The position numbers and the translations under genes are program-made. The notes under the pieces were generated by a model. That model did no database searches. It worked only from the letters and a program-made list of their open reading frames with translations, and was not told where the DNA came from. A stretch of DNA of 64,000 bases from Octopus vulgaris. Taxonomy: Eukaryota. Shown here piece by piece: positions 377-24,339 of the stretch (positions are counted from its first letter, which is position 1; each line of letters starts with the position of its first letter). The DNA is taken from NCBI GenBank assembly GCA_951406725.2, contig OX597824.1:99696001-99760000 (forward strand). The letters run 5' to 3'.

Positions 377-727
377 TTAATAGTCATCTACTTTGGGATG
401 TATTGCTTGAGGAAAGAGATGGTTGTGAATAGATCTGCCAGGAATCCTGCACATCTACATGCTCCTAACCACATTACTAACAAGCACCATGTACCATGGC
501 CAAAATCTTAAATTCTGAGCTCAGAGTTATGGGCCAGAAATCATTAGTGCCCCTTTCCTCAGCTAACACAATTGTCAATGTTCCCTGTCAACTACACTTC
601 ACCCCCGCTGCACCATACCAATACTCCACCCCACCGCACTACACCCTGCCTTAAAGTTGGTGAAAATAATCAAAAATGATGAATCAAATTTCTTCATTTG
701 AAATGTCAATATTTTTGTTTGTTTTAG

Positions 728-773
728 AAATACTTCTGTAAAAGAGCTGGCAAATAATCTCATTGAATTTGAG
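728..773 (+). CDS. SELENOL: Selenoprotein L, first coding exon visible in the window (upstream exons lie outside it)
   Basis: Acceptor tttgttttag| and donor GAG|gtaatg. Encodes (x)NTSVKELANNLIEFE, which joins in phase 0 to IEWDQFL, giving the SelL-like 'L.E.E.EW..FL..VD' segment. Confidence 0.7.
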
Positions 774-2124
774 GTAATGCATGACATTTTTGTAGCATTT
801 CTTTAACATTTTTTTAATTTTACTAATATATATATATAATTTATATTATTATTTCATTGAATACCACGCATCCATTTCTAAGTAAGTTTCTCTCTCTCGT
901 TGCTCACACGTGACTATCATCCATCTTTCTTTTCCTGCACGACTTTCTAAGGACTGGACATCTATCTTTTCCCTTTTCAAAGAAAATATTTCATCCAGCA
1001 TTTACTATTTTCCTCTCGTTCTGGTCTAATGACCCTCCATGTTTGTTTTCATTAAGTTTCCTTGTATGTCTTCACTGTCCTGTTTTTGTTCCCAACTTTG
1101 AGCCTCCATAAATCCAAAATTTTATTTTGGAATTTATGGAAGCAACTGTCTTCGAAGATTCATATTGCCGTTGAATGAGGAGCAGATAGACAGTCAACAA
1201 CTGATGAAGGGTCGTTCTTTGTGTTACTTGTCCTATTTTCCATGTTTTTTTTTTTGTCTCGTTGTTTGCGTATTTAACTCATTTGTATGCATGCTTCATG
1301 TTGTTATATCTATGCACACACACATACATACACGCTAATATCAAACAGTGATAATGAGTGTTCAACACTAGTCAATAAATCTTTATCTGTGGGTTAAGAA
1401 GGCTACCAATGATTTCACGTAAAAAGAAATCTCTTATCAATTTTCGAGCCTGTCACATGGAAACGCTAGTGCTCATCCCCATTTTGGAAAAACGAGACTG
1501 TGTGGAATTTCAGGATGAATAAATATACAGATCATGGAAAGTAACTTATAAAGAAATCTTAATTCCTGTCTCCCTTCTTGAATCATTTTATGTGAGAACG
1601 CTTGTGCACATCCAAATTTATAAAAAAACATTACGTATATGTGTACATGCACATCCATACAAAACATGCAGTTCCTTGTGAATATCCCAGGGCTAATGCA
1701 GGGGAGGCAACAACTAAGATTTCCTTACAAGTTACGTCCCGTGATATAATAATAATAATAATTGTGTACAGTGCTCAGGTGCACTATAATATGTATATTA
1801 TCTTCCTCAAAATCTTGTATTCTCATCCAAAATGGAGACAAATACCAATATTCCTGTGGCTACCATTAGTAGCCTTGTTAATCCACAACTAAAGTATGTA
1901 TATATATGACGGATTCTCTTGTCATGAACGATAGATGTGGGTTCAGTAAAATATTGTGTTAATAAAATAAAATGTTCTATGGGCACGAATGTGTCTCTTG
2001 AGGTCTGCTGGTGCCTTGCAAGCCTTTCGGCAAATGGGACAAGTGTTGAGGACTCAGTTTGCTTCAGTGCTTGTGGATTATTTACTTTGTCTTTTCTTGA
2101 GTGAACAGCAAGGCTTGCTCTGCT

Positions 2125-3330
2125 TCATCATCATCGTTTAGCATCCGTTTTCCATGCTGGCATGGGTTGGACGCTTTGACTGGGAACTGGCAAGCCAGGA
2201 GGCTGCACCAGGCTCGAATCTGATCCAGTCAGGCGACACTGCCAATGACCCACACATGAATGGTGCTCATCGCATGCCACCAGCACAAGAGCCAGTCAGG
2301 CAGCACTGGCATCAGCCACAACTACAATTTCCATTTTTGATTGAGCTTTGATTTTGATTTTACTTGGCTCAATAGATCTCCTCAAGCATGGCATGTTGCC
2401 CGACGATTAAAAGGTACTTTTTAAAGGGGCTGGTTTGCACCACTGGTATAGGCTATGGCTTTGATCTCACATTACTTGCTGGGTCTTCTCAATCACAGCA
2501 TATCTCCAGAGGTCTTGGTCTTTCATCATTGCCTCTGTGATACCCAACATTTGAAGGTTGTGCTTCACCATCTCATCCCATGTCTTCCTGGGTCTACCTC
2601 TTCCACGGGTTCCTTCCATTGTTAGGGAGTGACACTTCTTCACACAGCTCTCCTCATCCATACGCAGCACATGACCAGTGCAGTCGTCTCTCTTGCATAC
2701 TACATCTGATGCTTCTTATATCCAACATTTCTCTCAGGGTGCTTACACTCTGTCGTATATGCACACTGACATTACACATCCAGCGGATCATGCTAGCTTC
2801 ATTTCTTTCAAGCTTACACATGTCTTCAGCAGTCCCAGCCCATGTTTCACTGCTGTAAAGCATGGCAGTTTGCACACATGCATCATACAATCTACCTTTC
2901 ACTCTGAGTGAGAGGCCCTTTGTCACCAGTAGAGATAGGAGCTTTCTGAACTTTGTTCAGGCTTTTCTTATTCTAGAAGCAACACTCTCCGAGCCTTCCA
3001 CCCCACACTACAGACTTGGTCACCTAGGTAGCAGAAGCTGTCAACTACTACTACTTTCTCTCCCTGGCATGTGATGGAGTCTGTTTTCTGAGCATCTGCA
3101 GTGTTTATTGTCCCTGTGCATCTGACGCACACAAAAGCTATCATCCTGGTTGACCTTCCTTTGATGTTGCTGCACCTCTTATGCATACATAGCTTACACT
3201 GGGTACATCTTATGGAGTACATCTTTTCTAGAGATTGAGCAGAGCCATCTACCTGATGGAGTTTGTGGTGTGTTCACCTTCCTACTTACTAGGACTTTGG
3301 TTTTTGCAATATTGACTCTAAGCCCTTTTG
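2125..3330 (-). mobile_element. RTE-clade LINE, 5'-truncated and decayed
   Basis: Minus-strand fragments VDSFCYLGD, LYDACVQTAMLYSSETW and RGRGRPRKTW; (GAT)n tail near 2125. Confidence 0.85.
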
Positions 3331-4452
3331 ATTCTAAACTTTGCTTTCACACCTGAAATTTCTTTTCTAGTTCTGGTAGTGATTCTGCTGTGCCATAAAA
3401 CCACAATGATAGGTAAGGTTTCCATTGAGAGGAGCAGCATTTTGCTAGCGTGTCTTCATGTTTGTACAAAGTTGGTCCCAATGTTGGAGTCGATTTTGCC
3501 CAGATCTTTGAACTGAGTAGAAGCAGGACTGGTACCGGGTCCTGTGTTCTGATGCTTTGCTTTCCCAGAAAGAAAAGGGAATATTGATTTGCTTCAGATT
3601 GTCTTTTACTTTGTCTTTGAAGTGCAAGAGTGGCCCCTTCCAATTGACCTTACTGTTGGGAATTAGCGAAAGAGAAGTTGCATATGTCAGGTCACACTCA
3701 GGCGCTACTGGTAACATGTAACCTAGCACATCCTATTGCATAGTCGAGTCATCAGCGACTAAATTGGCAACCCCACTTAACTTGCTTTGTGAAGAGGGTG
3801 TTTATTGGACACCCTGTGGACGAAAAAACAAAACCTGTCAAAGGGTGGAGGACTAATCAATGGTCATCCAACAAAAATGGGTGTACATATGTATATATTG
3901 CTTTTACATATCTTATATATATATTCTTAAATCTCATATATTTTTACTTTTTTTCGTGTGTGTATATATATGTATGGGGCAGATGAGACTCCTTACCCAT
4001 GGTGATGGCAACCCATCTAGGAGAAGAAAAACTCTCTATATATATGTGTGTGTGTGTGTGTGTATATATAGACCTATCATCTTCATGGCTGATATTGCTT
4101 TGACAAAATTTGTCAATTTCCATTACTGCTGTAATAATTGTTCTTTTACAGCTAGCTAATTATACAGTTGATTTTGTATAAGAGGATATATATTATTAGA
4201 CCCTCTTTAACAAAACCTACAATTTATGTATATATTTGGATATGTATGCAGTCATCTGCTAATCAAACATTTTCTTTACCTCATGAAATTACTTCAAGAC
4301 TAGCAAGTTACACAAGAGGTGGAAGCCTCAATTCAAACCTAAAACATTTACACATCTCCTCAAGAGCCACACCTACATTTCTTCTGTAATTGACTAATTC
4401 GTGCCTAGCCAATCTTCTTTAATATTCTCTTTTGGTTTGTATTCTTTTACAG

Positions 4453-4704
4453 ATAGAATGGGATCAGTTTCTTCACACTGTAGATGCTGCTCTCCATGGT
4501 GAGTCCCATGGGAAAACTAAAACACTTGAGGTTGGAGATTATTTATCCCAGCAACTAACAGTTGTTGATGTATTAGAGGGAAATTCAGGAACTCTGGACA
4601 AATTACTCCCAGTTTTCACTTCTCCTTATTTACTACTTGTTCTCCAGCGCCATTTTGCATGACTACCCTGACGTAAACATGTAATGGAGCTAGAAACTTG
4701 GAAG
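4453..4704 (+). CDS. SELENOL: Selenoprotein L exon carrying the UxxU motif (TGA at 4660-4662 and 4669-4671 read as Sec)
   Basis: Acceptor tcttttacag| and donor AAG|gtaagc; 84 codons: IEWDQFLHTVD...PYLLLVLQRHFA-U-LP-U-RKHVMELETWK. Hydrophobic beta-strand + RHF + UxxU is the SelL signature. Confidence 0.93.
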
Positions 4705-4849
4705 GTAAGCTTGTTTCTTCTCCCCCCCCCCCAGTCTACGATAACTCTAGTCATCTTTTTTGTTGTCTCACTTTCTTCTGCAGAAATGTTATGTAACATG
4801 CGTTTTTACATGTTAACCTACCTGTGATCCTGTATTTATGTATATAGAG

Positions 4850-5110
4850 GTTACAGACAGGCTAATGGCAGTGGTAACCATCAAATGTGGCAGTAACTAG
4901 TAGTCACAACAGCACTTTCTCCAGCTGGTTCTGTTCTAGAATCTATACTTGCAGAAAATTTTCCTCCATTGCTAATAAGATCACATAGGTAATAGAAACT
5001 ATTGCCTGCCTCCAGAGAACCATCTGTGCATTTCAGAAAATTTCTCTCTTTTATGTTTTTAGTTTTTGCTCCTCTGCATCTGTTGCATATTAACCGTTTA
5101 GTGTTCACAT
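4850..5110 (-). mobile_element. RTE LINE fragment
   Basis: C.RC...GSLE..NSFYYL.D.IS.GG, homologous to the other RTE copies. Confidence 0.6.
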
Positions 5111-5749
5111 TACTCTGTTAAATGTAATACTTTTTCACTCAAATGGTTTTGAATTAATCATGCATTATCTTATAGCTTTGAAGTTTCAATGATGTGATTG
5201 TTTATTTTTAGAATGTCAATTTAGGTTAGAGGCTAGATATCGCCAGTTTGAATATAAACCATCTAGAATATTTGGGCCGGCCCATATGGCTGGTTTAAAC
5301 GGTCTTCTTTGTCTGTTAACCTTCTTGTGATCCAACATACCAAAATGGCCTCTGCCAGTAACAACACTTCACTCTAAATTCATGGATTATTTTCTTTCCC
5401 TTATTTGATAAGAGGAATGCTTCCCAAAATATTATAAAAGTATTAAACAACCTATGTAAAGTTATACAATATATTTTCTATGGTTTTTATTTATTGATGT
5501 CATTTTACATATTTTGCCTAACTTTTCACTTGCATTGCTCAGAATATACCCTTCCAGATTATAAACAATATTTCTAAGAAGTTAAAGATATCTATTCAGA
5601 ACTGCTAAGCTGCCATTAATATAAGAAATATTTGAAAAGATATTTAAATTTACTATTAACCCTAAAAAATGTTGGTTCTTTTCTCCACCTTATTTCCCTA
5701 AATACTTAAATTGATAAAATGACTGACACAGTTTTATTTCATTTTGCAG

Positions 5750-5872
5750 TCAGATTTGAAAGCTTTAGGCTGCGATGTTCTACTTCTTTTCTTTGGATCA
5801 CAGAAGTCTATAAAGCAGTGGTTGGCAGAAACAAAATCTTCTTTTCCTTCTTTTCAAGATTCTTCAAAAAAT
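5750..5872 (+). CDS. SELENOL: Selenoprotein L exon
   Basis: ttttgcag|...AAT|gtgaga; SDLKALGCDVLLLFFGSQKSIKQWLAETKSSFPSFQDSSKN, the AhpC/TSA-like 'V.V.FG....W...T...F...D' segment; phase 0/0. Confidence 0.88.
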
Positions 5873-6548
5873 GTGAGACATTTTAAAATATTTTTCAGAA
5901 ATGTTGAATTCTAAATATTACCAACAGTTGGAGAGTTGCTGCTGCTAACCCAAATGCTGAACAGTTGAAAATAACAAAATCTATGCAAATGCACAGATCT
6001 TTGATTGCTTCCTTTTTAAGATAGGCCTTTTTTTACCTTTTGAAAACTCTGCATCATTAGAAGCTTTCCTTATTTCTCTTTTCTTTCATTTTCTACTTCT
6101 CTACTACAGTGCTTCAAGTGAGCTACAATGCTCATATATATATATATATATATATATAAAATTGAATAATAAGAGTGTAACTCTTTCCATGGAATAACAC
6201 GGAAGGGCTCAATATATTGAGCAAATATCAAAGTTCATGGCGGGAGAGAAAACAGATTAATTTATCATCCTCCTTATCCGGCCAATACATATTCAAATTG
6301 GGAATACAATCAAATATATACATATATATTTTTATTATATAATTCCAAGGTTGGGTGATCACAAGATGTATACAGAAAATTACATCCGATAAAATAAATT
6401 AAAATCACAAGCAGGTGAGATGTTTAAAAGATTTACAATAGCCTTTCAATGAAATAAAATTAAATAGAGTAAGGCGAATTTAAACTGTCCTCGAATGAAA
6501 TAAAAATAAAGCAGTTCATGGCTGAAATAAAAATATAATGAAGTAAGA

Positions 6549-6631
6549 TATCTTACGATCATTTCAGGGAATACACAAAGCAAAAACTTTTCCTTTTGAC
6601 TTTGGTGGCTGCATTTCCTTCATCAGAGATA
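6549..6631 (-). ncRNA. Minimal type I hammerhead ribozyme motif in the Penelope terminal region
   Basis: Minus strand: TATCT-CTGATGA-AGGAAATGCA...TGTATTCCCT-GAAA-TGATCG-TA-AGATA (stem I, core, long stem II, near-palindromic stem III, GUA cleavage triplet). Confidence 0.75.
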
Positions 6632-6899
6632 GAATTTTTAAAGTTTAGGTTTTTTTTTAAATTTAAGTTTTTTTAAAAGAGTTTTTCCCACAACAACTGT
6701 GTGATCTTGGTAATAAATATAGAAGAGCTGAAAGAGTTGTAAATGAGTTTAAAGGAAAAAATAAAAATGAAAAGTGGTCCGGTATGTATAAAATAAATTT
6801 TCATGTCTTATAATTACTAGAAATAACAAAATTATATTTATACCTATACTAAATTATATGCCTGAATAAGGATGAGTGGAGATCTATATCGGAGAACAC

Positions 6900-8520
6900 A
6901 GCATTTTAAAAACTTTTTGTTTTTTCTAAAATTTTAAAAATCTTTTTATTTTCTAAAAAATTTGAAAGTTCATAGCAAATTGTGCTGACATGAGATGAAG
7001 ACCTCAGATATCTTATTCAGCAATAACTGTTCTTAATATATTTATGACTTCTTTCAAACAAAGTCTACAGGTTTTTATTTGGGTGTTATATGCAGTATAC
7101 TCCCCCATGATAAACCATTTTAGAGAGTATATTCTATTACTGTTTTTTATATGACCAAAGCAGTTGAATTTTTCCTATTCACTTGTGCCCTATATCTAAT
7201 CTTGAAATTTGTAGTGCTTCCAGTGTATACTTTTTTAACCTCATTTAAAGTATTCATTTATACACTACATTGTTGTGTAGACACTGACCCTCTAATGGAC
7301 AATTATTTTGAGAGCTATAATCACAACTGTTTTTTGCAAAGCCACCCATTTCTTTATTATTATTTCCTTTGTTACTGTTAGTATTTGTCAAATTTCATAT
7401 TTTAGGCTTATTATTTGTGGCAATAATCGATCCGAGGCTCAATGTTGTGGAATAAGAAAATTTCAGAGTTGATTTGTTAAAAATAGAGTGGTTCCTATGT
7501 GTTGAAGGAAAATTATTCTCAATTTATTAATTTAAAGAATAACTGGGGAAGGTTTTTAACCTGTAAGGAGGGGAGGGGGGTGAACCAAATAATATCCCAT
7601 TTCCATGCTGTTTTTTATAGAATTCCCTAGTTACATTAATATTACCCACATTATTATAATTTAAATTCTTATTTTTTTGTATTATATCTACATCGTTCAA
7701 GTTCAAGAAGGTCAATATTAGATGGGATATCTATATTTAGATCACCCAATTTTGGGATCATTCTAGCCAGCTTAATTCTAAATACAGTATTTTTTTTATG
7801 TATGTTTCGTGTTAAAGCCACTATTCATAAGGGCCAGATACATGTGTGTATGTGATTATTAAAAACCTAGTCATTGGCAGATAGATTAGATATCCTAATT
7901 GATACCCCTTTAATTACTCTGTTAATGACACTTTTTAGATGGTTAGATAATATGTTGATATACTGGATAGTCTTATCCTTTAAATAAGGATAGAATAGGC
8001 CATTTTCCGAGTTCAGGATAATGTCTAAAAAATTTGCAATCTTAGACACCTGTTTTCAGAAGTGATATTTAAATTATATCCCTTAAAGACCCTAATTAAT
8101 TGTTTCCTACTCCTATCAATTTTTCGTAAGGGAAAGTTCAAAATGACAAATAAAGCGTCATCTCTATATAATCCCCTGCTAATATTTGGAAATTTCTCCT
8201 TAATAATTGATAATAAGAATAGCCCAACAATGTCAGTGATTTAGGTGGAATGAGAAGATCCCATCGTAACATCGAAATTATCTGGGATATCACTACGGGT
8301 CCAATATTTTTCATTATACGAAATTAATGTTTTTCTGGCAGTTTGGATTATCCCTTTTTCCAAAAGTGAAATGTTCTTAAATCTATTTTCAAATGCCAAT
8401 GCCGTATGTAAAAGATTCAGAGATATTAACTGTTAATAATTATCATTGTCGAATTGTATAAAACAGGATTTTTCTTTTATTTTGAATTGAACAAAACCAT
8501 GTAATTACATTACCAGTTCT
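6900..8520 (-). mobile_element. Penelope-like retroelement (RT + GIY-YIG), decayed, antisense within a SELENOL intron
   Basis: Minus-strand motifs DNFDVTMGS, LYRDDALF and NFLDI...YINILSNH (RT), then CPLEGQCL..NVVYK...YTGSTTNFKIRY (GIY-YIG); many stops. Confidence 0.85.
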
Positions 8521-10091
8521 GTTACATAGAGGCAAATCCACATTCCGCTTCACATGAGGGAAGATTCACAGAGATTCTCATAAATAAATCATGAGATGCT
8601 ACTCTTGGATGACATCTTTTAAGTGGTTGTCTCTCTTAGGTTTGACTTTTGGGCCAACAATTGTGTTGGATGGTAAATTTGTTTGCATTATCATATAGTA
8701 TATTCTAGTTGTATGTGATGTTCATATGCTTGTGTAGCAAGGTAGTCCTTCATAGGGGCATGTTCCTTCTGTGTGTGAAGTTCATGTATTATGTATATTT
8801 AAATTTCACATTCAGGAAAGGAGATATCCTGATGGGATTAGCAGCACAGGTAGTGTTTCTTCTTTGAAATGTTTGATAGTAAAATATTGCTCATGTATGC
8901 AAGGAGATTTCACCCCTAATATTTAGAATGTTAATTGTTGACTGTAGATATTTAATTTTTCAGTGATACAGAGTTCACATTTGGTACTGCATCTTCTGTA
9001 TTTTCCGACTTTAGCAATGATGTTCCATTTTATCTGGGGTTTACTTATTCCACCTTGTTTCAATGTCCATATCATTATTGGAGAGGGATGTTATGTGTCT
9101 TTTATTTGTCTCTGAATGATGCCAGCTATTGTGTGTACCTCTCCTTGAATGAGTTGCCCATCATTCTGTCTGTCTTTGCTACTCCATTGGGATCCATGAC
9201 CTTGGCCTTGTATACAAGTTCTTTTCTGAGACAGTTGTTGTTTAGAGGGCAGTGGGTTGGAGATGTGCACCTTCATGATTCTACAACCCTTGCTGGTCAT
9301 AGAATTAATTTGTTTAGTTTGGTAGTATTATAGGAGAAAATAATGCAATGTCATGCATGGGTAGTGGGTAATGAAGATTTATAGTAATAGAGGAGGTTAG
9401 TGGATGGAGTAGGGGGCAATCAGATAGTGAGGCATCTCCCCCCTACAACTATGATCGAATTAGTTTCTTTTATCTTTTAATTCTATTCAACAAGCAGTTT
9501 TAGCACTAAGTACAAAGGCTAAGGTTACCCAGTTATTTATACACTTAACAGCCCTCTATATACCCCCTTTAAGGCTGGAAGGATCATTAAGGAGATGATA
9601 AATCTGATAATACGATGGGGGGAGGGCATGAAATAAGAAGAGTGGCCATCATTAGATAAATAAAGGAGTTTACATTAAAAGGGGTTATGAAAGCAAATGG
9701 ATAATAATAAAATAAGGATTCTAATTAAAAAATTAGGAAAATAATAAAGAATGTGAGTGGTAGATAGTCACTATGCAAATAATATTATAGGAATTAAAAA
9801 AATAATTAAAAATTAGTTAAAAATAGTATAATGGAATAAAGTAAAATAAGGTAATGTAAAGGATAAAGTAGAATAGCAAGTAAAAGGTGAACTGAAACAG
9901 AATAAAATAATAATAAAACGAGAGAATATATAATAAGCATAATTCAATACATAAATATAGCATGAAATGAATCAAAATATACGAAAAATGAGAAAATATA
10001 AGAAAGCAGTTTAGTATAAATTTCCAAGACATGATTTGAGATGTGTAGAATATATAAAGCAGATTCCTTAATATTGAGAATTTAAAGTGTA

Positions 10092-10700
10092 ATCATCGTC
10101 ATCATCATTTACCATCTGTTCTCCATGCTGGCATGGGTTGGACAGTTCAACTGGGGTCTAAGAAACCAAGGGAATGCACCAGGCTCCAATCTGATCTGGC
10201 AGTGTTTCTACAGCAGGATGCCCTTCCTAACGCCAACCACTCTGTGTGTAATGGGTGCTTTTTATGTGCCACTGGCACAGGGGCCAGAGAGGGCTGGCAC
10301 CCGCCACGTTTGGATGGTGCTTTTTACGTGTCACTGGCACAGAGAGGTGTCGCTGGCATCAGCCACAACTATAATTTCCATTTGATTTGATTTTGATGTT
10401 GATGTACTTGACTCAATAGGTCTCCCCAAGCACAGCATGTCACCCTACAATCGAAAGGTACTTTTGTTAAGTGACTGGTTATGCGACACTGGCATAGGCT
10501 ACAGCTGTGGTCTCACTTAATTTGTCAGGTCTTCTCAGTCACAGCATATCTCTAGAGGTCTCGGTCTTTCATCATTGCCTCTGTGATACCCAACATTTGA
10601 TGGTCATGCTTCACCGCCTCATTACATGTCTTCCTGGGTCTCCCTCTACCACGGGTTCCTTCCACTGTTTGGGTGTAACACTTCTTCACACAGCTCTCCT
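10092..10700 (-). mobile_element. RTE LINE 3' end
   Basis: RGRGRPRKT and the shared 3' UTR/tail (catcatt...ccatgctggcatgggttgg on +). Confidence 0.8.
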
Positions 10701-10869
10701 TAGTGAATGGGGAAAGCTTGGTCTGCAGTGTTTGCACCTGTGTATCCTTGTCAAGAGCAGGGCTTATTAGCCACCAATGGATCCGTAAATGCAAAATATA
10801 AGCTAGTCCTCGACTGCACAATGTTCCTGAAGGTTAGCAATGGTCTTCCTTGGTCACGACTGGGCAGCC

Positions 10870-10961
10870 ATCATATATACGTGTGTGTGTGTGAGGGAGT
10901 TGTATGCATATGTGTGTGTCTGTATATATATATATATATATATATGTGGGTGTATGTATTA

Positions 10962-10994
<33 letters not shown>

Positions 10995-11112
10995 GTGTGT
11001 GTTTATGTGTATATATGTTTATGTATGTGAGAGTATGTATATGTGTGTGTATGTCTATATAGATGTGTGTGTGTATAGATCTGCATGTGTGTATGTATGT
11101 ATATATATATAC
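10870..11112. repeat. Compound (TG)n/(TA)n microsatellite
   Basis: Direct reading; produces spurious YIYI/VCVC ORFs. Confidence 0.9.
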
Positions 11113-11181
11113 GTGAGGTGGGGGTAATCTTGCTAGTAACTTTCTGTCACTTAATCACAAATTTTGTTTTGTTTTTTCTAG

Positions 11182-11220
11182 ATTTACTCTGCTCTTGGAT
11201 TACGTAGATCTGTCAAGGAA
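11182..11220 (+). CDS. SELENOL: Selenoprotein L micro-exon (39 nt)
   Basis: ttttttctag|...GAA|gtaaga; IYSALGLRRSVKE matches the conserved 'Y..(F/L)GL..S' motif. Confidence 0.85.
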
Positions 11221-11504
11221 GTAAGATATTTATATTATACTCTTTCCTATATATATATATATATAGTTAAATACTGATGTATAAATGAAAATATTTCATT
11301 AGCTGGGGTCAGACCTTACTTTGATAAATTCTACTCCTTGTTTTATTTCCATTTTTACGTAGTTTTTAGGAATGGCTTTAGAGAGTTGTGTCTGAGATCA
11401 ATGAGAAGACTAATATATTGGAAGAGAAGCATGAACATCACATAATCCCATACTATTCTCCTGTAACCTACCATCAAATCTAAGGCTTCATAATTTTGTT
11501 AGAG

Positions 11505-12730
11505 ATCATCATTGTTTAACCTTCACTTTCCATGCTGGCATGGGTTTGACTGGGGACTGGTGAGACAGAGGCTGCACCAGGTTCAATCTGGTCTGGCAAT
11601 GTTTCTACAGCTGGATGCCCTTCCTAACGCCAACCACTCTGAGAGTGTAGTGGGTGCTTTTTACTTGCCACTGGCATGAGGGCCAGTCAGGCGGTTCTGG
11701 CAATGACCATACTCACGCTCAAAAGGTGTTTTTACATACTACCTGCATGGGAGCCAGTCCGGCGGCACTGGCAATTACCATGCTCGAATGTAGTTTTTCA
11801 TGTGCCACCAGCACAGGAGCCAATCTGTGGCCCTGGCAATGGTCACACTCTGATGTGCTTTTAACATTCCACTGGCACGAGTGCCAATCAAGCGCTACTG
11901 TCGTCGGCCACATCAGCAATTTTGATTTTGATTTCACTTGCTTCAACAGGTCTTTGCAAGCAAGGTTTATTATCCAATGAATGAGGGGTATTCATAAATG
12001 GGCTGGTTACACCCACTGGCATAGACCATGGGCTATGGTATCACTTGGCTTGTTGGGTCTTCTCAAGCACAGCATATCTCTATTGCCTTGGTAAGGCCCA
12101 ATGTTCGAAGGTCATGCTTCACCACCTCATCCCAGGTTTTCCTGGGTCTACCTCTTCCACAGGCTCCCTCAACTGCTAGGGTGTGACACTTTTACACACA
12201 GCTGTCCTCATTCATTCGCAACATATGACCATACCAGCATAGTCATCTCACTTGCACACCACATCTGATGCTTCTTAAGTCCATCTTTTCTCTCAGGGCA
12301 CTTACACTCTGTCGTGTATTCACGCTGACATTACACATTCAGTGGAACATACTGGTTTCGTTTCTTGCAAGCTTACACATGTCCTCAGCAGTCACAGCCC
12401 ATGTTTCACTTCCATGTAGCATGGCAGTTCACACATATGCATTGTACAGTCTACCTTTTACTCTGAGAGAGAGGCCCTTTGTCACCAGTCTTTTATAAAG
12501 GACCATCTACCGAAAGGGGTTTGTGGTTTGTCTGCCTTCCTACTTATTAGACTTTGGATTTAGCTAGGTTGACTCTAAGGGCCTTCAATTCTAATCCTTG
12601 CATCCACACCTGAAACTTTCCCTCTAGTTCTGATAGTGATTCAGCAATTAGAGCAAGGTCATCAGCATAGAGGAGCTCCCAGGGGCATCCTGTCTTGAAT
12701 TCCTCTGTTATTGCCTGGAGGACTATGATG
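11505..12730 (-). mobile_element. RTE LINE, RT-to-3'-end fragment with an internal deletion
   Basis: EFKTGCPWELLYADDLALIAES (RT YADD motif) plus the same 3' UTR. Confidence 0.85.
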
Positions 12731-12815
12731 AAACCCCACCTAGGTATATTTTCCTCCCATAAATGTACAATTTGTAATCTCAAGTAATTGATGATATTAA
12801 TATATTTATTTACAG

Positions 12816-12914
12816 GTGTTTTGTATGAAGACCACACAATATTATGCTGCTGAAATGGCTTCTGATGGGATTATCCCAACTCCATATAAAGATTTCAATG
12901 AAGATATTTACCAA
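12816..12914 (+). CDS. SELENOL: Selenoprotein L exon
   Basis: tatttacag|...CAA|gtaagg; VFCMKTTQYYAAEMASDGIIPTPYKDFNEDIYQ ends in the conserved EDIYQ. Confidence 0.88.
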
Positions 12915-12969
12915 GTAAGGACATTTTAATATCTAACCACTCAATTTTATTTAAATGATCACCTCTAAA

Positions 12970-13257
12970 GCGTGGTTGATGCCAGTGCTAGCTGACTGGT
13001 CCTGTGCTGGTGGCATGTAAAATGCTCCATTTGAGCGTGGCCAATGCCAGTATCACCTGACTGGCCCTCATGCCAGTGGCACGTAAAAAGCATCCACTAC
13101 ACTCTCAGTGTGGTTGGCGTTGGAAAGGGCATCCAGCTGTAGAAACATTGCCAGATCGGATTGGAACCTAAGTGCAGCTTTCTGGCTTGCCAGCCCTCAG
13201 TCAAACCGTCCAACCCATGCCAGCATGAAAGCTGATGTTAAACGATGATGATGATGA
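12970..13257 (+). mobile_element. RTE 3'-UTR-derived repeat
   Basis: ggaaagggcatccagctgtagaaa...caacccatgccagcatg...aacgatgatgatg; reverse complement of the RTE tails elsewhere in the window. Confidence 0.75.
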
Positions 13258-13778
13258 GTGAGATGAAATATGATAACTTATTCTGAAATTATAACTTAGG
13301 ATGGAAATCATAGCTTTTAGTTCTTATATTTCCATTGTAAACTTAAGACTACGACTGGATGTTAAAATCTGAGCAAAATAATGCAAATTACATGAGAAGA
13401 AGGATCGCAGAAACCACACAAATCTATATACAGTAGTCCCTCGTCATATCACTGTCCACCTCTTGCGCACTCAGTATATCATGGTTCACTTGTCATGCAC
13501 TCAGTACATCGTGGATTTTTCTGGCTAATATTTGTAAATTTATACTGCAAACTCCTCAGTATATCTGGATTTCTGCGGTCGATAGGTATTTATATTTTTT
13601 TAGATTTGAATTATTTCTGTGGGAGGTTTTCAAATGTAACACCGGTGGTAGTCAAGAGATTACTGTACACTTGTACAGACACCCAACTTGTGATATTAAG
13701 AGTCACTGAGCATTGACTGAAAATTAAAACCTGATACAATCTGATCCTAAACCAAAATACTTTATTATTTCTTGCTAG

Positions 13779-13886
13779 ATGGGTGGTGATTTCATCATTG
13801 ACCAAACTGGTAAAATCTTGTTTACCTATCGCAGTCAGACTCCAAGTGATCGACCTTCTGCTGAGCAAATTTTAGGAACCTTAAAG
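13779..13886 (+). CDS. SELENOL: Selenoprotein L exon
   Basis: ttcttgctag|...AAG|gtcagt; MGGDFIIDQTGKILFTYRSQTPSDRPSAEQILGTLK completes the Q-(L/M)GGDF...DRP motif of the SelL/PRXL2-like family. Confidence 0.9.
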
Positions 13887-14692
13887 GTCAGTAAACCTCA
13901 TTGCTGTTGACAACCTTTGAATCATTATAAATTTTTGAGATTATTAAAAATTTGATATTGTTGCCATGGTGACAATATTTAGAGAAGGAAATACTCAATA
14001 TTGAAACTATTTTTTCTGTATTAAAACAGTGGAGAAGTTTATTACCTTTGCTATGGAAAAGTAGTACTTGATGGAATCGACCAACAGTTGTTTTTTTATC
14101 AACCAATAACATAATACCAAAATCTTTTCTTATTCATTAATCACACATGGGTGCAGTGATGGGTGAGATTGCTCTCAAGAGTCAAGGGAACTGAGGAGTG
14201 TAGAATGAAACAACCTACCCAGACACACAATACTGCTTGCATTTTAAACTCAAGATTGTCACCTTGGGCAAGTGTCTTTTGTTATGGATCTGGGCTGACC
14301 AAAGCCTTTGTGAATGGGTATGGTAGATGGAAACTGAAAGAAATCTATTATGTGTATGTATCCTTGTCTTGATGTCACATGATGGTCCTAAATGAGTATC
14401 TCACCATTATACAAATGATATCATTTTCACTTTTCAAATAACTTGTCTGGACATGAGGAAATACTCAGTGCTTGGAAACAAGTGAGGGTTGGTGTCAGGA
14501 AGGGCACCTGGCTGTTGAATATTCACCTAAACAAATTTCATTTAGCTAAAGCAAAAAATGGAAAAGCAGACATTACCCTTTAATACTGCAAGTTACCATT
14601 CCCTCTTCCCAATGGGGGAATTCATTACCACTGCCCATTTTTAAAACCACCATCACTTATGCTCTCACCAACAAACTGTCGGCTGCTGATAT

Positions 14693-14734
<42 letters not shown>

Positions 14735-17383
14735 ACACCCTGTCATTACTGCTCCATCATCATCATCACTCCTTCTTTACTATTTCCTCTTCTACACTAT
14801 TATCCCAATTATATTCTCTCATTTCAGTTTGTCTTCTACAATCACTTTTTCTTCTAGCTATTACTAATTAAGAGATGTCCATTGATTTGAATCTGATGAT
14901 CTATTCTGGTACCGTTTAGTTTCTCCCCATATGGAATCCTTCAGAAACAACAAAAAAGATGAATCTGACAGAATAATCTATATTTGAGTGATTTTTCTCC
15001 TGTTTCGATACTCAAACACATCCACCCACACATAATTTAGCAGATGTGTGTATGTACATACACACATCTTTTATGTGTTTGTTGGGGAGGATTATTGTAA
15101 ACATGGCTATTCTCCAGTTTTTACTTTCCTTTTAAATAATCCATGTTTTGTCTGGAACAATAAATTTCTGGTGTTTGTTGTTATTAATAAGATTTCACAG
15201 AATACTAGTCGTTACCTATTGCTATGCTGCTGAATAACAACCTCGTCAAGACAAAATAGATCTTTCAACAGAAACCTACTATAATGATCACATTGATAGA
15301 CTCAACAACAGCCTTTTTGAAGCAAATTTAAGTTCTATCTTTCACACACACACACTCTCTCTCTCTACCCGAATATTGTTCCCTTTCTCTGCAATTTGGT
15401 TTCTTGTGTTATAGTGGTACAGTTGTAGCTAACATTTACAGCTCAGTCACTGAGAGTGTCTTGTATCTTTTAAGTCTAAAGAAACAATAAGTCATGAGCT
15501 TTATAAATATTAGTAAATTGTATCCATCATTCTTTGGCAGTTTATTGACTTGCAGTGCCTTGCTGATTTTTAAAAGTTCATACTTTATATATCATTATTA
15601 ATGATAATTTACAATGGAATTCTGTTTGGTGAGCTATTTTTATAGTTAGGATTGATTTAGTTCATCTAATACACTAAATGTGTTTAAAAGAAGTATTAAG
15701 GTCTCTTTGTTGTTTAATTTTCTAGTTAGAGTTAAATTATTCAGTGATTGAAAGTATTTGATTATTAACTAATGTCTGTTTTTGCCTATTAATTAATTTC
15801 TTTCAAGCATAAATTGTGTGTGTGTGTATTATATAATTGGGATTTAACCGTTGTGTTGATAATGATCATCTTCATGTATGTAGATTAGTATTTTAGTGTT
15901 ACATTGACTGAATAAGTAAGATTTTAAAGTGTATAAGAGATATCTCTTAAGCTTCCAGTGACTGTATCAACTTGTTTTTTGTGTATCTGTCACAAAGAAG
16001 CTGTCATCTACATAATTCATATAAATGGTATGATTGAGTATGATTTCTCCATTGATCATGTCCTGAATGTAGACCCAAGTGGCTACTGTTTTGTGGTAGA
16101 CAGAAGATAATAGTTTCCTCATTTGCTGCTTTAGCAGAAAGATTCTATATGAGATGTTTGTAAGCATTCTTCAATATTATTACAACTGTTTCCTTCAAAG
16201 GGCTGTTAATGGAGAGGAGAATCTTTCTAAATTAAATGCAGAGATGTTGAATATTTGCCTTCTTTGAAAATCTGTAAGATTTCATTTACTGAAAGTGTAG
16301 TAAGCCCCCCCCCCTCTTCAACCTTTTCTCTCTTCATCTCTTTCTCTTGAGTTTCAACAGTTCCAAAGAAGATACTCTTTATTGAAAATGCCAAAACACT
16401 CGTACGTACAGGCACATAGAAAACACTGTAGATATAAAAATAACAAATATGAAGTCAGACAACTTGTGTGTGTTTGTGTGTAATGCACGGACACATGAAT
16501 GAGGTCTTTTCTCATTTGAATTCAGCTTGCAAGCTTTGATTGTTTTTTTTCTCTTTTTAATGGAGTCAATGTGTAGAAATGTAGATTAATACTGAATACA
16601 TTTGTGATTCTGTTTATGCACAAATGCCCACCTTGAGAGTCTCATAATACATTCACAAGAGACACTAGTGTGTTTTGTGAAATAATGTCTAAATTATTGC
16701 ACTTTCCATCGATGTGTCTTTAAGCTCTTACATTGATCTAAGTGAAACAGAAACAGCCTGTCACTCAATCGGAGTGAAACATCAATATTTCACCAAAATC
16801 ATCCCTCTTTTACCAATCAGCTCTTTGATATTGCAACATTTAGGAACTACATTGATAAAATGAAACATTAAGTCTAAATAGATAATCTTGATCACCAACT
16901 TGACATGGAAGCTGCATTGGAATACAGAATTCTGCTTTATTTACCTTGAGAGTATCTCCCATCAGGACTCATGGTGTATAAAAGTACTCGTAATGATATT
17001 GCTGACCGACAAGAATCGTCTGCTATGACTGCTGGAACTGCCCAATCACCTCATTTCATCCTGCTTTTGGTTCCTCAGTGACAAATGTCCAGCAGCACCA
17101 ATATCAGCCAAATTTCTTGTCAACAATTTCGGTGTCTATTCAGGCACGTCACTGAGGAACCCGTATTAGGGGGAAATCACAGGATCTTGCAGTTCTGGGG
17201 GCTGTAACAAGTGCTTCAATATACCACGAGTCCATATGAAAGGTCATCTCAAAGTTAACACAGTATTCCATCTTTTAACACAAAATCCATTTTAAGTTGG
17301 AAATCTAGATTTCTTTTTGGTATTAATCCTGCTTTGGTAGCCATTAATTACTTATTAAGTCTAAATATTTTATGATATTTCAG

Positions 17384-17398
17384 AATTTTCCTGTGTAA
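17384..17398 (+). CDS. SELENOL: Selenoprotein L terminal coding segment (NFPV-stop) at the start of the 3'-UTR exon
   Basis: Acceptor atatttcag|AAT TTT CCT GTG TAA, followed directly by the SECIS; AATAAA at 17901-17906. Confidence 0.7.
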   Translation, partial: NFPV

Positions 17399-17404
17399 AA
17401 CGAA

Positions 17405-17478
17405 GCATGTGGTATCTATGAAGGCCCCAGATGAAAGCAGTAACATTGAAACCTTGGGCTGGAAATCTCAACGCATGT
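17405..17478 (+). promoter_or_regulatory. SECIS element (eukaryotic type 2) in the SELENOL 3' UTR
   Basis: Helix I GCATGTG/CGCATGT; core ATGA (17418-21) opposite GGAA (17461-64); helix II GGCCC-AG/CT-GGGCT; AAA (17434-36) 12 nt after ATGA; apical mini-stem CAGT/ATTG. Confidence 0.85.
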
Positions 17479-17644
17479 CTTGAAGTTGATCATTGTTAAT
17501 TTGTTTATTATATACATTAACAACTATATTTGTAATTATTTTTACCGGATGTTAACATCATGACCATCATCAATGGTAACACTATCGATTTTGATAATAC
17601 AGATGTCTTTTATTTCTAAATGAATTCCTGAATGCACATAGAAG

Positions 17645-17829
17645 CAGGGGTGGACTGAGCTGTTGGTCAATTGGGCACTGCCTGAGGGCCCGCACTCTAC
17701 ATGTTAACTCTCTTTGATATCAATGCTAAGGGCTCCACATTCTACTTGTTAACTCTCTTTGATATCAATGCTAAGGGGCTTGGTGAACAGTTATGCCTGA
17801 GGACCCTTATTACTCTCAGTCTGCCACTG
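17645..17829. mobile_element. hAT-like MITE in the SELENOL 3' UTR, with an internal ~45-bp tandem duplication
   Basis: TIR CAGGGGTGGACTGAG / CTCAGTCTGCCACTG; imperfect 8-bp flanks CATAGAAG / CATAAAGG. Confidence 0.5.
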
Positions 17830-19251
17830 CATAAAGGGCTGCTAACTACAACTGCTACATTTAGTCCTTCAAATTTTTATTTTTTTAATTTGCTTGTTTT
17901 AATAAAAGTTTATTACATTCATGAAAAATTAAGGTAGTGTTTAAAAGTAAATATTTTTGTTGTTGTTTATAAGTGTGTGTGTGTGTGCACATGAGCAGTG
18001 ACAGAGTGTATAACTAAGAAATATCTCCATAAACAGTTTGGTTCAATTTCAAATTCCGCAGTTTTAACCAATAGAATATAGGACTTAAGTAGAGTCACCT
18101 TCTTCCAACAGCTGTCATCAGCATCACCATGTGGGTTGTTTGACCTTAAATCTCTTTCAAAATAAAGTGCACCATCTTAAAAAGGGAATGTCACAAATGA
18201 CAGGGTAGGCAAAGCCAGAACAACTTCGAAAATAAGTCTGTTCTATCTCAGCTGACCTAGTGCTAAGCAATTGCAACACTATAAGCCTCCTGTCCTTCTG
18301 AGATTGATTAAATAAAGAACGGGGGGGGGAGGGTTATACTGGGGGTTGAAGTAACGAAACATATGACATTACTAACAGACAGACAAGTCTGTTAATAACA
18401 TATTTCTGTTATCATATTTCATGTAGGAAGCATTAAGAAATCTAGAAATAATTGTATCTCAGTATTTCACTCCATAAACATGTTTTGGATTCAGTCCCAC
18501 TGCACAACACCTAGAGCAAGAGTCTTATAACCCTGGGGTGGGGGTCAACCAAAGCTTTGTGAATGGGTTTTGTAGAAACTGAGAAAAACAGAAATATATA
18601 CATGTGTGTGAGTGTGTGTGTGTTCTCTTGGTGACATTTATCTGTGTGTGAAAAGATGTCTAATCAATTGAAACATTATCTTACTTGAAAACAGGTGAAA
18701 GTTGGTGACAGGAAGTGCATCTAGATAGAGAAAATCTGTCCCAAATTTGGTCTAACTCCTGCCATCACATAAAAGAAGATGTTAAAAGGGTGTTTTCCTC
18801 AGTGAAATGACTGCACCACACTTGCCAAAACAGGAGTTAGAAAATCCTTAATAATTACCCATTAAGTAATGTTTGTGTCAAATTTTGGCACAAGGCCAGC
18901 AATTTCAGTCTGTCTGTTTCAGCAGAGATAGGTATCCTATAGATTGCTGGTGCAGATTTTTTATGATGTTGTCAGTTAAGAAAATGTCTTTAACACTCTT
19001 GGCTAAGGTAGTGGCACACTGAATCATCACCTTCTTTCACTATGGAATCAATATTTTCCTGTTTAGTTAATGTATTCCCTTAAAATTCTAACTGAACATA
19101 ATATTGAGGACTTTGAGAAGATTATATAATTTGTGCTGTGATGTCTTCTGTAAACCAACAAGCATAGAGGAGAAGTCTGCAAACTACTGGAAATTGTGCA
19201 TTTGTATGAAGAATACAGAAGGCTGTTGACATTATGATAAACAATTTTTTT

Positions 19252-19680
19252 TCATCATCATCCGCTTTCCATACTGGCATGGGCTGGACGATTTGACTGA
19301 GGACTGGCTAACCAGATGGCTGCACCAAGTTCCAATCTGATCTGGCAGACTTTCTACAGCTGGATGCCCTTCCTAACACCAACCACTCCAAGAGTGTAGT
19401 GGGTGCTTTTATGTGCCACTGGCACGAGGGCCAGTCAGGCGGTACTGGTAACGATCATGCTCAAATGGTGTTTTTTACGTGCCACCTGCACAGGAGCCAG
19501 TCCAGCAGCACTGGCAATGACCTCACTCAAATATTTTTTCATGTGCCAATAAAGCGACACTGGTAATGATCATGCTCGAACGGTGCTTTTACGTGCTACC
19601 CAATTGGAAGCCAGTCAGCTGCTCTGGCAACTCGCTTGGATGATGCTCTCAGCGCTCCACTAGCATGGATGCCTGTCATT
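19252..19680 (-). mobile_element. RTE 3'-UTR repeat
   Basis: Near-identical to 11505-11900 and 48136-48550. Confidence 0.8.
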
Positions 19681-20936
19681 GCTATAACTGACAAAATGTT
19701 GAGAGAGTTTGAATGTTGTTCTAAAAGAACTGCAGCAATTGTCAAGAAGTTTGCTGGTTGTTGTGTTGCTGTCACCAATTATTCATTGTGGTTGTTGTCA
19801 GCTTGGGTCAGCAGCTCTCCTTGTCTTTTTGCTGTCTCTCAATGCTCTCTGTCAAGAAGTCAAGGTGCACTGAATTTATACTGATGGTTAAGCTCAGCAA
19901 GAAGCATTCCAAAAGATAAAATCCTTGCTGGAGCCTTTTCTACACGAAGTCATGATTGGTCAGTCAGATTTTGTTGATCATGTGGGTAATATTCTCACAA
20001 ATTGTGACACTGGGTGATCTGACTGCTGAATATGCCCACTGCATAACTCTCCTGTCACCGAAATTTCCTTTCACAATGAATTGAACAAAATGAGATTAGT
20101 GCAGGTACTGCAGATGTGAAATGCATAAAGGAATGTGTATTAGAAGAGGGGAACTGCAAGACTAAAAATGCTGGTTAAATGTTAGTAATATTGCAAAAAC
20201 ACTTGGAAAGAAGTTTGAAGAGAACACATGTATGTGTGTGAACCAGATGAGTGCAGCTAATTGTGCAACTGAGTGAATGAGTGAGTGACTCATAAATAGT
20301 CATATACATGGACACCACTGAGTTAGTGTCATATCTACCAGTGGATCAGTAGTTGCATTTGAATAGGTGTATTTGCACATGAATATCAGTGGATTGCCAT
20401 TGTGAACCTATTCAGCATTTCCTGAGCTTAGAAACATAAGCAGCCGAAGTAAAGTTGCATCGTCTATCCGTTTTATGTATACTGCTGGCAGTAAGTGTGT
20501 TTGCAAAGTGTTCACGTGCATGTTGTGCAAGTGATGGGTGCTTGTGTGAATGTCAAATGTATGTTATGTAAATGTCTTCAGATGTATGCTTGTATGAACA
20601 GAAAGAAGGAGAAAGCAGCAGGACAAAAAAACATAATAAACTAGCTTTTCTTACTGTACTGGAGAAAACATGTCGACTTATCTCATTCCTGTCATTGGAG
20701 AGCAGACAGAAGCATCAGTGGAAGAATGAGTTGATATTGTTTGTTCAAATGGCAAGGCTGATGTTAAAGATTCAAGATGAACCAGCTGCAGGCATTCAAT
20801 GCCGATGGAGTCTTTTTTGAGGACAAGCAACAAAGAAAACAAGACAAATAAGAATCTATTGGGTATGTTGGTTGATATTGACAATGCTACCAGTAGCATG
20901 GCCACTGGCACCTTGGCAGTGTTGCTGAAAACATTT

Positions 20937-21201
20937 GGATCTTTTCCTTTTGAAGGCCAGATTTCAACACAATTTCTAGTTAACTAAACACTTTAAAACT
21001 TCGTATACTGGTAGAATGTGTGAAAATAAAACATTTTTTTCTCTTGGCTTTCTTGAGAAAATTGTAATTTGTTTGTTTAACGTAGTTTAATTTTTCGAAT
21101 TTTAACCAATCCTATGCTCTCTTTTGAGCTAATACAAAGTTTAAAAGTGTTTAGTTAACTAGAAATTGTGTTCAAATCTGGCTTTCAAAAGGAAAAGATC
21201 C
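20937..21201. mobile_element. Merlin-type MITE (265 bp)
   Basis: ~65-bp TIRs starting GGATCTTTTCCTTTTGAA; perfect 8-bp TSD AAACATTT (20929-36 / 21202-09). Confidence 0.8.
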
Positions 21202-22379
21202 AAACATTTGATGTGCTGAGAAGTGTGTTTGATATATGATCACCAGTGTTACGACAACTGAGATAGTGATCACACAACAAGGCTATAAATGGTAGGGAAA
21301 TGTCGATTTTCTCAGAAATGTATTGGTGTTCTTCATGTGAACTTGCAAAGTATTCTTAAGCAGTGTAGCTGCAATGTCCTACAGACAGTCATTGGTAAGT
21401 TGTCTCTAAACGGCATCATATGCTTCCTTCAGGGTTGGCTGTGAAAATGTTCTTTAAATATTTGGGTTACCAACTTGTTACTAGTGTTGAGTGCTATTTC
21501 TAGCATCAGAAGTCACCCGTTGTACAAAGAAGATGGAAATCTATTTGGATTTTTGATAAACAATTTTTTTTTTCATACACTAAAAGCAAAAAACTCATTT
21601 ACTGCAAATCACAAAATGTTATGGTTGTTTGAACACTTCTCGGTGTAATTGTAGTAGTGGTCAAAAAGTTAGCTGCTGAATATTGTTACTGATCATTCAT
21701 TGTGGTTGTTACCAGCATGGGTCAGCTGTCCACATCTGTTTGCCATCTTGTTGTCTCTCAACGGTCTCTCCAAGCTTTCTGTCAAGTAATCAAGGTACAC
21801 TGATGGTTAGGCTCAGAAAGAAGCATATCAAACGATGAAATCCTTGCTAGAACCTTTACCACATGAAATCATTATCAGTTAGATTTTGTTGATCACATTC
21901 TCACAAATTGTGACATTGGGGTAGTGAACTGATTGCTGAATATTCCCACTTTGCATCACAAGGGATCACCAACTTGTGACAAAAAATAAAGTATGAAACT
22001 CAGAGTTCCCCAGTGACCCAACAGGTCACAGATAATCTAGTAATATATTAAGTCAGAATGAATCATGCCTACTTGCTTGTAATGTTACTCAGACAAACTG
22101 GCGCATAATGGGAAAATACTATGAATTATGCCCCTGAAATGTAAATACGAGCAGAATGAAACAAATTTCGCGTAAATTGGATAAGTGGTTGTGAAGATAG
22201 TAAGGGTTTCCGGAGTATAAATACCCAAAACGGTACATAATGGTAAAAGTCTCCGATATTAACTTGATCCTGGAAGGGAAGCAACTCATCCCTTTCGATT
22301 ATACAATGACTTGATAACAAAAAATGTTTCTATTTTCGCTTTTCTGAAATATAATATTTTAAATAATAATGAAATTATT

Positions 22380-22740
22380 GTATACAGTGCTCAGGTGCAC
22401 CACAACTTGTCAGAGTCAGATACATGCTTGCATGTGTATGGAGGGAAGAAAATCAGGTGTAGTGTTGGCGAATCTCAGGAAGCATGGAAGTTTTGAAGGA
22501 TGCAGTGCTCCGGCAACTAACAACTGATGCCGGCAGTTTGTTCCATACTTGAGCAACTCTTAGCGTGAAAAAATGTTTCCTAAAGTCATGGGAGCTGTGC
22601 TGTTTTCTGACTTTGTAAACATGTCCATGGGTGTTAGACAGGTGTTGTTTGAAAAGGTGCTCAGAGTTATTATTTGTAAGATGGTTAATAATTTTATAGG
22701 TGTCTGCCAAGTCAGCTGCCAGACATCGGGGTTTCAATGT
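22380..22740 (-). mobile_element. CR1/L2-group LINE 3' end
   Basis: DL..TYKII...HGH.YK......RKHFFTLRV..VWNKLP..VV, the typical CR1 ORF2 C-terminus. Confidence 0.8.
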
Positions 22741-23571
22741 ATCATTTAGAAATATTTTTAAGTGAATGGGATTTCAAAAATGTGAGTTGTTTATACAATA
22801 AGTATTAATATTTTAGCTTTCTTTAAACTGACAATATTTTAATGGTTTTTAAAATTATTTTCAAGTGAATACCATTACAAAAATTCTTTTTGGCATAAAT
22901 ATTTCGTAAAAGATCCGGGGATTTATTCCATCTCAATCACAGATCTTAAAATTAATTTTTAAGATACGTTCGTAACCTCAGTGTGAAATAACTTTTTTCT
23001 GTATGCTTATTTCGAGTACATTCAACATATCTCACTTCCAAAGATTTGGTTGCTATTTCCAGCACTCCCTGCTACCATGTAACAGCTATTTGCGATAAAG
23101 GACCCGAAATGCCTGTTACGTGGTAGCAGGGCGTGCAAGAAATAGCAGCCAAATATTTCCTTTTTCTGGGGAAAGGAACTGCTTACGCTTGATTTTGATG
23201 TCACGTCCGTTGAAAGCATGCAAAATAACATGGAAAAGGAAAAAAAAAAAACACGAAACAAAACTCTGTTGCTGGGAAACTCGGACTTTCCCGGTGACCC
23301 AACGGGCCACTAGTAGTCTAGTTCACTATAAATGGCATGCGCTAGTCTCGAACCTCGGCCCGCGATGTTTACATTTTATATCACCTTAGAATGCATCGGG
23401 TTCTACAATATCCAGTGTGCCTTTCCCTTTTTTAAGACTGTATGGTGTGATTTGAGGGAGATCTAACTGCTATTTCTACCATGTTGATCTTTGTTATTGT
23501 TTACGTTACCAAGGAAACGCTTTTATTGATTACATTACTGTTGCTAGGTTACCCAATCTATTAATTCAAAC

Positions 23572-23847
23572 ATGGCTGACGAAGGTGACTTGAAGCAGTC
23601 TTCTTGTGAAGCAGAGACACTGCAACACGGAGCTGATAACGACAAAACATGGTCCATAAATAGAACAGAAACTAGCAGTAGTGTAGGAGGACAAGGGATC
23701 GAATCTGATGACAGATTAATACAGATGTCGAGCAATGATAGCGCTGCTAAATCAACTTACGTCCGCAACACCGTTCCCACGACAGAAAATCCGTTTGAAA
23801 AAGCCAACAGATATTTATATAAGCATAATTTGTTCTCGCTTTTTCAG
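23572..23847 (+). CDS. TEX55-like protein (C-terminal RIIa/DPY-30-type dimerisation-docking domain), coding exon 1
   Basis: ATG in good context (aacATGg), preceded by an acceptor at 23547; low-complexity N-terminus, then NPFEKANRYLYKHNLFSLFQ|gtgagg. Confidence 0.75.
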
Positions 23848-24339
23848 GTGAGGTGTTTTTCCCACCCCACCTCATTCTCTGTCTGTATTTCTGGCTTTTT
23901 AAAAATATTTCTGCAAGCGCGCCCACGCGTTTAATTGAGTGTTTAAGATGCTTGTTTCACAAAGTTAAGTTCAATTCTGGTGTAACATCTTATTTACCAT
24001 AGAATCAAGTCATGTCAATGAAACCGGGTCGATAGAAACCATGAATTGCATCCAAAAGATTTTACTTGTTAATGCAAAACCCTACTTTGCCATATGTTAA
24101 TTCTGTTTGTGTCTATGTTAGTCTGTGTGTGTCTTTGCATGTCTGTATATGTGTGTGGGTATTTTCTTTTTGCATTCATATTATTTCAAACACTCCCTAG
24201 AAAACAAATTATAAATGTAACTCTCCATTCTAGAATTTTACCAAATCCTAAATCTATCAAAATAGTTTTTGTTTATTACAAATAAAGCTTAACTGTCTTT
24301 ATTCTACAGAATAGCCTTGAACCAAAACTGTCAATGGAC

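Follow-up and report, generated by a model that had tools for sequence, protein, structure and literature searches.

Evidence for an intact selenoprotein L gene in Octopus vulgaris that public annotation divides into two proteins

In a window of 64 kb of Octopus vulgaris DNA (the whole stretch that was analysed), we recognized the last seven exons of what is, with high confidence, an intact selenoprotein L (SelL; SELENOL) gene, whose two in-frame UGA codons would be recoded by means of a SECIS element to yield a UxxU protein with a thioredoxin fold. The public annotation wrongly cuts this one SelL gene into two proteins. The features of the gene, in positions of the window, are as follows.

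728..773, + strand: internal coding exon with phase 2 entry, the earlier exons lying upstream of the window; spliced to 4453 in all four runs
4453..4704, + strand: coding exon spanning the last part of the helical domain, the first strand of the thioredoxin fold and the UxxU motif
4660..4662, + strand: first in-frame TGA (predicted Sec, about residue 179), at which the record CAI9730809.1 terminates
4669..4671, + strand: second in-frame TGA (predicted Sec, about residue 182)
5750..5872, + strand: coding exon, AhpC-TSA_2 region (script and contigs)
11182..11220, + strand: 39-nt coding exon (script, contigs and CAI9730810.1)
12816..12914, + strand: coding exon (script, contigs and CAI9730810.1)
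13779..13886, + strand: coding exon that carries the conserved motifs MGGDF and DRP (script and contigs)
17384..17731, + strand: last exon, with 4 codons, TAA (17396-17398) and a 3' UTR that contigs follow as far as 17731
17404..17482, + strand: SECIS-like element with a lower helix, an AUGA core at 17418, a 10-pair upper stem (8 paired), an apical AAA and a 3' GA at 17462
17901..17906, + strand: candidate polyadenylation signal AATAAA, from sequence only

The exon structure was checked by a script, which found AG before all seven exons and GT after the first six. The exons measure 46, 252, 123, 39, 99 and 108 nt, followed by four codons and TAA, and when spliced they give a single frame with phase 0 at all six joins. 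The preliminary description of this DNA had proposed exactly such an arrangement of seven GT-AG exons joined in frame and in phase 0, interrupted by two TGA codons that are separated by two codons, and both the script and the contigs described below agree with it. Its estimate of about 226 amino acids is correct for the spliced frame within the window but not for the protein, the 5' third of which is encoded elsewhere. The 728-773 exon has a phase 2 entry and contains no start codon, and it is therefore an internal exon. Since residues 1-94 of CAI9730809.1 had no credible match anywhere in the 64-kb window, the start of the SelL gene lies upstream of the window, which holds its last seven exons. 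The whole octopus SelL has about 320 aa with U179 and U182, provided that the 5' exons of the public record are correct. The gene bounds of 728..17478 proposed earlier had to be given up at both ends, as the start is upstream and the transcript reaches at least 17731.

Transcription and splicing were examined in sequencing runs found by a search with the UGA exon. This search listed 24 runs, 20 of which contain the exon; none is recorded as RNA, and that they are RNA is a guess in favour of which the spliced joints argue. Contigs from four runs of four studies (X7, X9, X10 and X19) were aligned on window positions 700-18200. All six joints that had been predicted (773/4453, 4704/5750, 5872/11182, 11220/12816, 12914/13779 and 13886/17384) were present as GT..AG in the assembled contigs of 4/4 runs. 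The UGA exon and the 3' UTR lie together on one contig in X10 (1299 nt), X19 (1284 nt) and X9 (1093 nt), and the X10 contig has a further 328 nt ahead of 4451, which agrees in length with the public record's 5' part. These contigs show that the exons are spliced into one transcript containing both UGA codons and the 3' hairpin, and not, as could have been feared, into transcripts that skip or lack these codons: both TGAs are unchanged in all four runs. Across the UGA exon (4453..4704), X7, X9 and X10 have 0 other letters, and X19, which derives from a related organism, has two differences, at 4573 and 4589, both outside the TGAs. The listed exon pieces of this related organism's contig contain no gap, and hence no frameshift of the kind that would mark a decayed copy. 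The contigs end at 17731, which is probably an assembly break because it falls inside a 45-bp tandem repeat (17685-17777); the true 3' end of the last exon is probably further 3'. Long stretches of the SelL introns (about 1900-3600, 10050-10600 and 11200-13500) consist of high-copy interspersed repeats with very many contig matches.

The head and the tail of this frame are held by two consecutive O. vulgaris accessions. CAI9730809.1 (178 aa), found by the search with the UGA exon, is identical to the head of the model and ends at the first TGA. CAI9730810.1 (134 aa), the next accession, found by the search with the MGGDF exon, is identical to the tail, and its start Met lies after the second TGA, with 8 codons between the two records. 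It had been foreseen that open reading frames would be truncated at 4662 and that automated annotation would probably split the gene, and both expectations were borne out, the two records being the halves of one spliced frame. Taken as annotated, the locus would encode two separate proteins, one helical and the other an AhpC/TSA protein translated from the Met after the second TGA; both records do exist, and truncated N-terminal halves are very common in databases (72/90, as described below). However, the two halves are in frame on one spliced transcript, the break between them hits the catalytic motif and separates the first strand of the thioredoxin fold from the rest, both positions are occupied by U or C in relatives, and a SECIS-like element lies past the stop. 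We therefore consider two separate proteins extremely unlikely. The two 'hypothetical' O. vulgaris proteins should instead be annotated as one selenoprotein.

Several searches bear on the identity of this protein. Two pieces of the octopus protein matched the NCBIfam model SelL_rel_redox (NF040769): the C-terminal half covers profile positions 46-172 (E 9.3e-27), and the piece encoded by the motif exon covers positions 9-49 (E 3.4e-10). Taken singly, neither reaches the 120 bits that NCBIfam sets for the whole protein. Pfam AhpC-TSA_2 matched the C-terminal half with 61 bits, above its cut-off, and the N-terminal half gave no significant match to Pfam. Word-index protein searches returned O. 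vulgaris's own records only. An exhaustive protein search with an N-terminal profile of 178 positions, which leaves the motif itself outside, yielded 90 homologue representatives. Ten representatives were looked up, and the five that had names include a Latimeria 'selenoprotein L' and proteins of Ciona savignyi and Argonauta hians. The Latimeria protein matches the octopus N-terminal half with E 7e-13, the Argonauta hians homologue ends at the same residue as CAI9730809.1, and the C-terminal half of another record is 96% identical to that of octopus. Selenoprotein L is also the name of the two best-ranked Atlas clusters (0.96). Aligned with five two-domain UxxU proteins, the octopus model is 33-36% identical over 270-302 columns, and in a quick tree, which has no SelU outgroup, the 8 two-domain or eukaryote-type rows fall on one side of a branch with a support of only 34. 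Homology to named SelL thus extends to the N-terminal half through Latimeria and to the catalytic half through NF040769, together with the Atlas names (0.96), and the SelL identity first proposed from the letters alone is upheld. A third Atlas cluster, of SelL-like N-terminal fragments (found with P0002 as query), has Nematoda as its commonest phylum. Nematodes are said in PMC3473315 to have lost most selenoproteins; this cluster may be due to certain nematode lineages with SelL or to wrongly labelled records.

Structure predictions were made for the two parts of the protein separately. A helical bundle is predicted for the N-terminal half of the octopus protein (pLDDT 87). Foldseek gave no match for it at E <= 0.001, and a wider structure search returned generic three-helix bundles alone, with a best Z of 9.4. 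As helical bundles can reach a Z of about 13 through their common arrangement, these matches are generic, and the function of the bundle cannot be read from its structure. For the catalytic domain, we used the full-length homologue L038 as a stand-in for the octopus protein (pLDDT 95, pTM 0.90). The motif of L038 (residues 159 and 162) is placed at the start of the helix that follows the first core strand. The best PDB match of this model is human prostamide/prostaglandin F synthase (9usa; E 1.7e-9, TM 0.79 on target), followed by peroxiredoxins. The geometry obtained in this way, which is that of L038 and not of octopus, is of the thioredoxin/peroxiredoxin-like type, and the motif opens the active-site helix.

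This closest solved fold, which belongs to the PRXL2/SelU group and shares Pfam AhpC-TSA_2 with the octopus protein, raises the question of whether the gene could encode not SelL but a selenoprotein from a family close to it (SelU/PRXL2 or AhpC-like). The human synthase, however, has Cys and not Sec, is about 24% identical and matches without the N-terminal bundle. Against membership of such a neighbouring family, the N-terminal domain matches a named SelL, the SelL-related HMM matches as well, two Sec residues placed two residues apart are given as the mark of SelL in PMC3316567, and the named matches of the octopus protein all point to SelL. We regard the probability of a neighbouring family as negligible, and SelL is the assignment that we retain.

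If the UGA codons are read as Sec, they should be matched by Sec or Cys in relatives. Among the 90 homologue representatives, 72 terminate precisely on the residue that precedes the first TGA, the stop codon being deduced for most of them from the end of the protein and not seen in DNA. P0010, one of the 72, is identical in sequence to the first part of L038, and L038 has TGA at this codon. The remaining 18 comprise one read-through with WxxW (P0076), four models without the motif and others that end elsewhere. The mis-annotation seen in octopus therefore appears to be widespread, the 72 homologue clusters that end at the matching codon including the Argonauta record. At the DNA level, TGA-xx-TGA was found in 5/5 two-domain loci (L035-L039, with the same domain sequence in L037 and L039) and in one partial locus. 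The 34 bacterial loci comprise 24 with UxxC, 6 with UxxU, 2 with CxxC (by eye) and 2 without the motif within the locus, such that both motif positions are U or C in 32/34. In 58 metagenome loci, a script counted 28 UxxC and 13 UxxU, inspection by eye added one UxxU, one UxxC and 5 CxxC, and 10/58 have introns or are cut ahead of the motif. In the loci with a readable motif, the residue aligned to the octopus UGAs is U or C and never Trp. It had been proposed as a check that the TGAs should align with U/C of SelL relatives and be conserved as TGAs in related genomes; the former is seen in the 72/90 proteins and the 5/5 UxxU loci, and the latter in the same five loci and in X19. The bacterial loci (L001-L034), which are mostly from Chloroflexota, mix UxxC and UxxU among close relatives, which suggests that the second Sec of bacterial SelL-related genes has been gained or lost repeatedly.

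These comparisons also speak to two other ways of accounting for the in-frame TGAs. One is that the locus is a transcribed pseudogene with nonsense mutations, to which the two stops themselves and the weak SECIS score would lend themselves. The stops, however, fall exactly at the U/C positions of the family, the frame is intact over seven exons, and the related organism keeps both TGAs though its exon differs at two other sites. In addition, another record has the 96% identical C-terminal half, and the Argonauta homologue ends at the same residue. The pseudogene reading is thereby largely refuted, and we assign it a vanishingly small probability; that the gene is intact, as was claimed at the outset, follows from a frame open over all seven exons (TGAs aside) and a spliced transcript in 4/4 runs. 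The second is that the UGAs are read otherwise, either as Trp after A-to-I editing or with one of the two recoded. A-to-I editing is common in cephalopods, and the database homologue P0076 is translated with WxxW, most simply by its gene caller's choice of code. Yet no other letter occurs at either codon in the contigs of four runs, although assembled contigs lose rare variants and could conceal low-level editing, and the aligned residue is never Trp in loci with a readable motif. Such decoding is highly improbable, and insertion of Sec at both UGAs is the reading that we adopt.

Insertion of Sec would depend on the hairpin in the 3' UTR, which the preliminary description had called SECIS-shaped. 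This description is apt for the anatomy of the hairpin, with its core and covarying stem, but not for its score, as the Rfam model SECIS_1, which has a cut-off of 35 bits, gives 14.8 bits for its alignment to 17409-17474, and an Rfam scan of 13800-30000 (16 kb) listed no SECIS. The folding energy of the hairpin is no better than that of shuffles (z -0.19). A custom pattern, composed after the candidate was seen, has the candidate as its sole + strand match in 64 kb, with one - strand match, and matches 0/1000 shuffles of the UTR; it also matches 2/14 other 3' regions and misses the element of L036. The core, the apical AAA and a 3' GGA are common to the octopus element and to those behind L036, L079 and L080. 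In a 4-row SECIS alignment, two rows of which are near-identical, 88.5% of cells pair (0/500 shuffles). At 4 of 13 pairs, both partners differ among the four elements, which is more than in any slid control. When a model was built from the three other elements with octopus left out, the octopus element came third among the 14 hits in the window (13.7 bits, E 0.32), and the two hits above it are without most of the stem. The same model, applied to 11 loci, added a single significant element, that of L074, and no significant SECIS was detected behind L035, L039 and L044 by profile, pattern or three-element model. The core lies 20 nt past the stop and 437 nt past the second UGA in the mRNA, a distance that exceeds the minimum UGA-SECIS spacing of 51-111 nt quoted in PMC3316567. 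Judged by a GA/GA quartet, an apical AA and a location in the 3' UTR, the element is SECIS-like in anatomy and conservation and not in score, which moderately supports the view that the 17404-17482 hairpin is a real but divergent SECIS. The SECIS matches in L036 (1275-1340), L074 (1680-1744) and the window (17409-17474) start within about 30 nt of the stop, and those of L079 and L080 lie more than 400 nt downstream of the frame end of the last matched exon.

Taken together with the literature on the family, these data suggest how the octopus protein might be made and act. The spliced mRNA, which in the contigs carries both UGAs, would have Sec inserted at both by a single SECIS, as family conservation and the established eukaryotic pathway imply; one SECIS serving both UGAs is said of the SelL family in PMC3316567. 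The product, of about 320 aa, would begin with a helical bundle (about 110 aa) and continue with a peroxiredoxin-like thioredoxin fold, in which UxxU is probably located at the start of the active-site helix. By analogy with the family, the two Sec would form an intramolecular diselenide (PMC2397514 and PMC13134290). The most likely job, at about an even chance, is that of a low-potential oxidoreductase that resembles the CxxC enzymes of the PRXL2 group and alternates between its diselenide and diselenol forms. As a guess, a partner or substrate may be bound by the helical bundle, whose conservation among SelL-like proteins extends from octopus to coelacanth. It is very unlikely, though conceivable, that the first UGA is also a regulated switch, where low selenium or A-to-I editing changes the product. 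If this were true, a 178-aa helical-bundle protein with its own role or a Trp-containing, redox-dead form would result, and the N-terminal bundle would be an undescribed adaptor that controls a diselenide enzyme.

The SelL family has been known since 2007. It is characterized by two Sec placed two residues apart, one SECIS and a peroxiredoxin-like domain, according to PMC3316567 and PMC13134290. Six sources (PMC3473315, PMC13134290, PMC13188914, PMC2397514, PMC2874816 and PMC3316567) report SelL from fish, Ciona, a sponge, a placozoan, a sea anemone, an annelid, amphioxus and marine bacteria and its loss in tetrapods, and Table 1 of the survey of Jiang (2012; PMC3473315) gives no SelL for a mollusc, the limpet Lottia. 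The octopus protein shares the three characteristics above with SELENOL of fish, coelacanth, Ciona and aquatic invertebrates, and its N-terminal domain is homologous to the Latimeria record; it is probably a divergent cephalopod orthologue and nothing different in kind. Bacterial SelL-related proteins (NF040769) are alike in the catalytic domain, RH..UxxC/U, MGGDF and DRP, but are without the N-terminal helical domain, against the profile of which they give weak, motif-level scores, and they mostly have UxxC (24/34) where octopus has UxxU. The gene thus adds a cephalopod to the range of SelL. Our search, which left most subscription papers and the selenoprotein databases outside, found no paper on a cephalopod SelL, and octopus SelL may already be catalogued elsewhere. 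The gene also offers another system for the SelL substrate and the reductant of the diselenide, which passages of PMC2397514 and PMC13134290 treat as open and to which the gene itself gives no answer.

The remainder of the window contains several other features. Long inverted repeats at 20934-21204 and 23048-23150 match unrelated microRNA models far below their cut-offs and are probably transposon-derived hairpins. At 42851-44740 (+), a single open frame of 629 aa matches Zwilch, a component of the RZZ kinetochore complex (Pfam PF09817, E 1.7e-59); because this frame runs without interruption through the greater part of the domain, the locus is a single-exon gene, a retrocopy or a large exon. 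A TA-rich microsatellite of about 2 kb (about 50200-52250) produces long false open frames, and a gap of 100 N lies at 56014-56113. A LINE piece at 52554-54730 (+) has endonuclease and reverse transcriptase frames that were confirmed by Pfam, and a similar LINE piece was recognized by eye at 56205-58091 (+).
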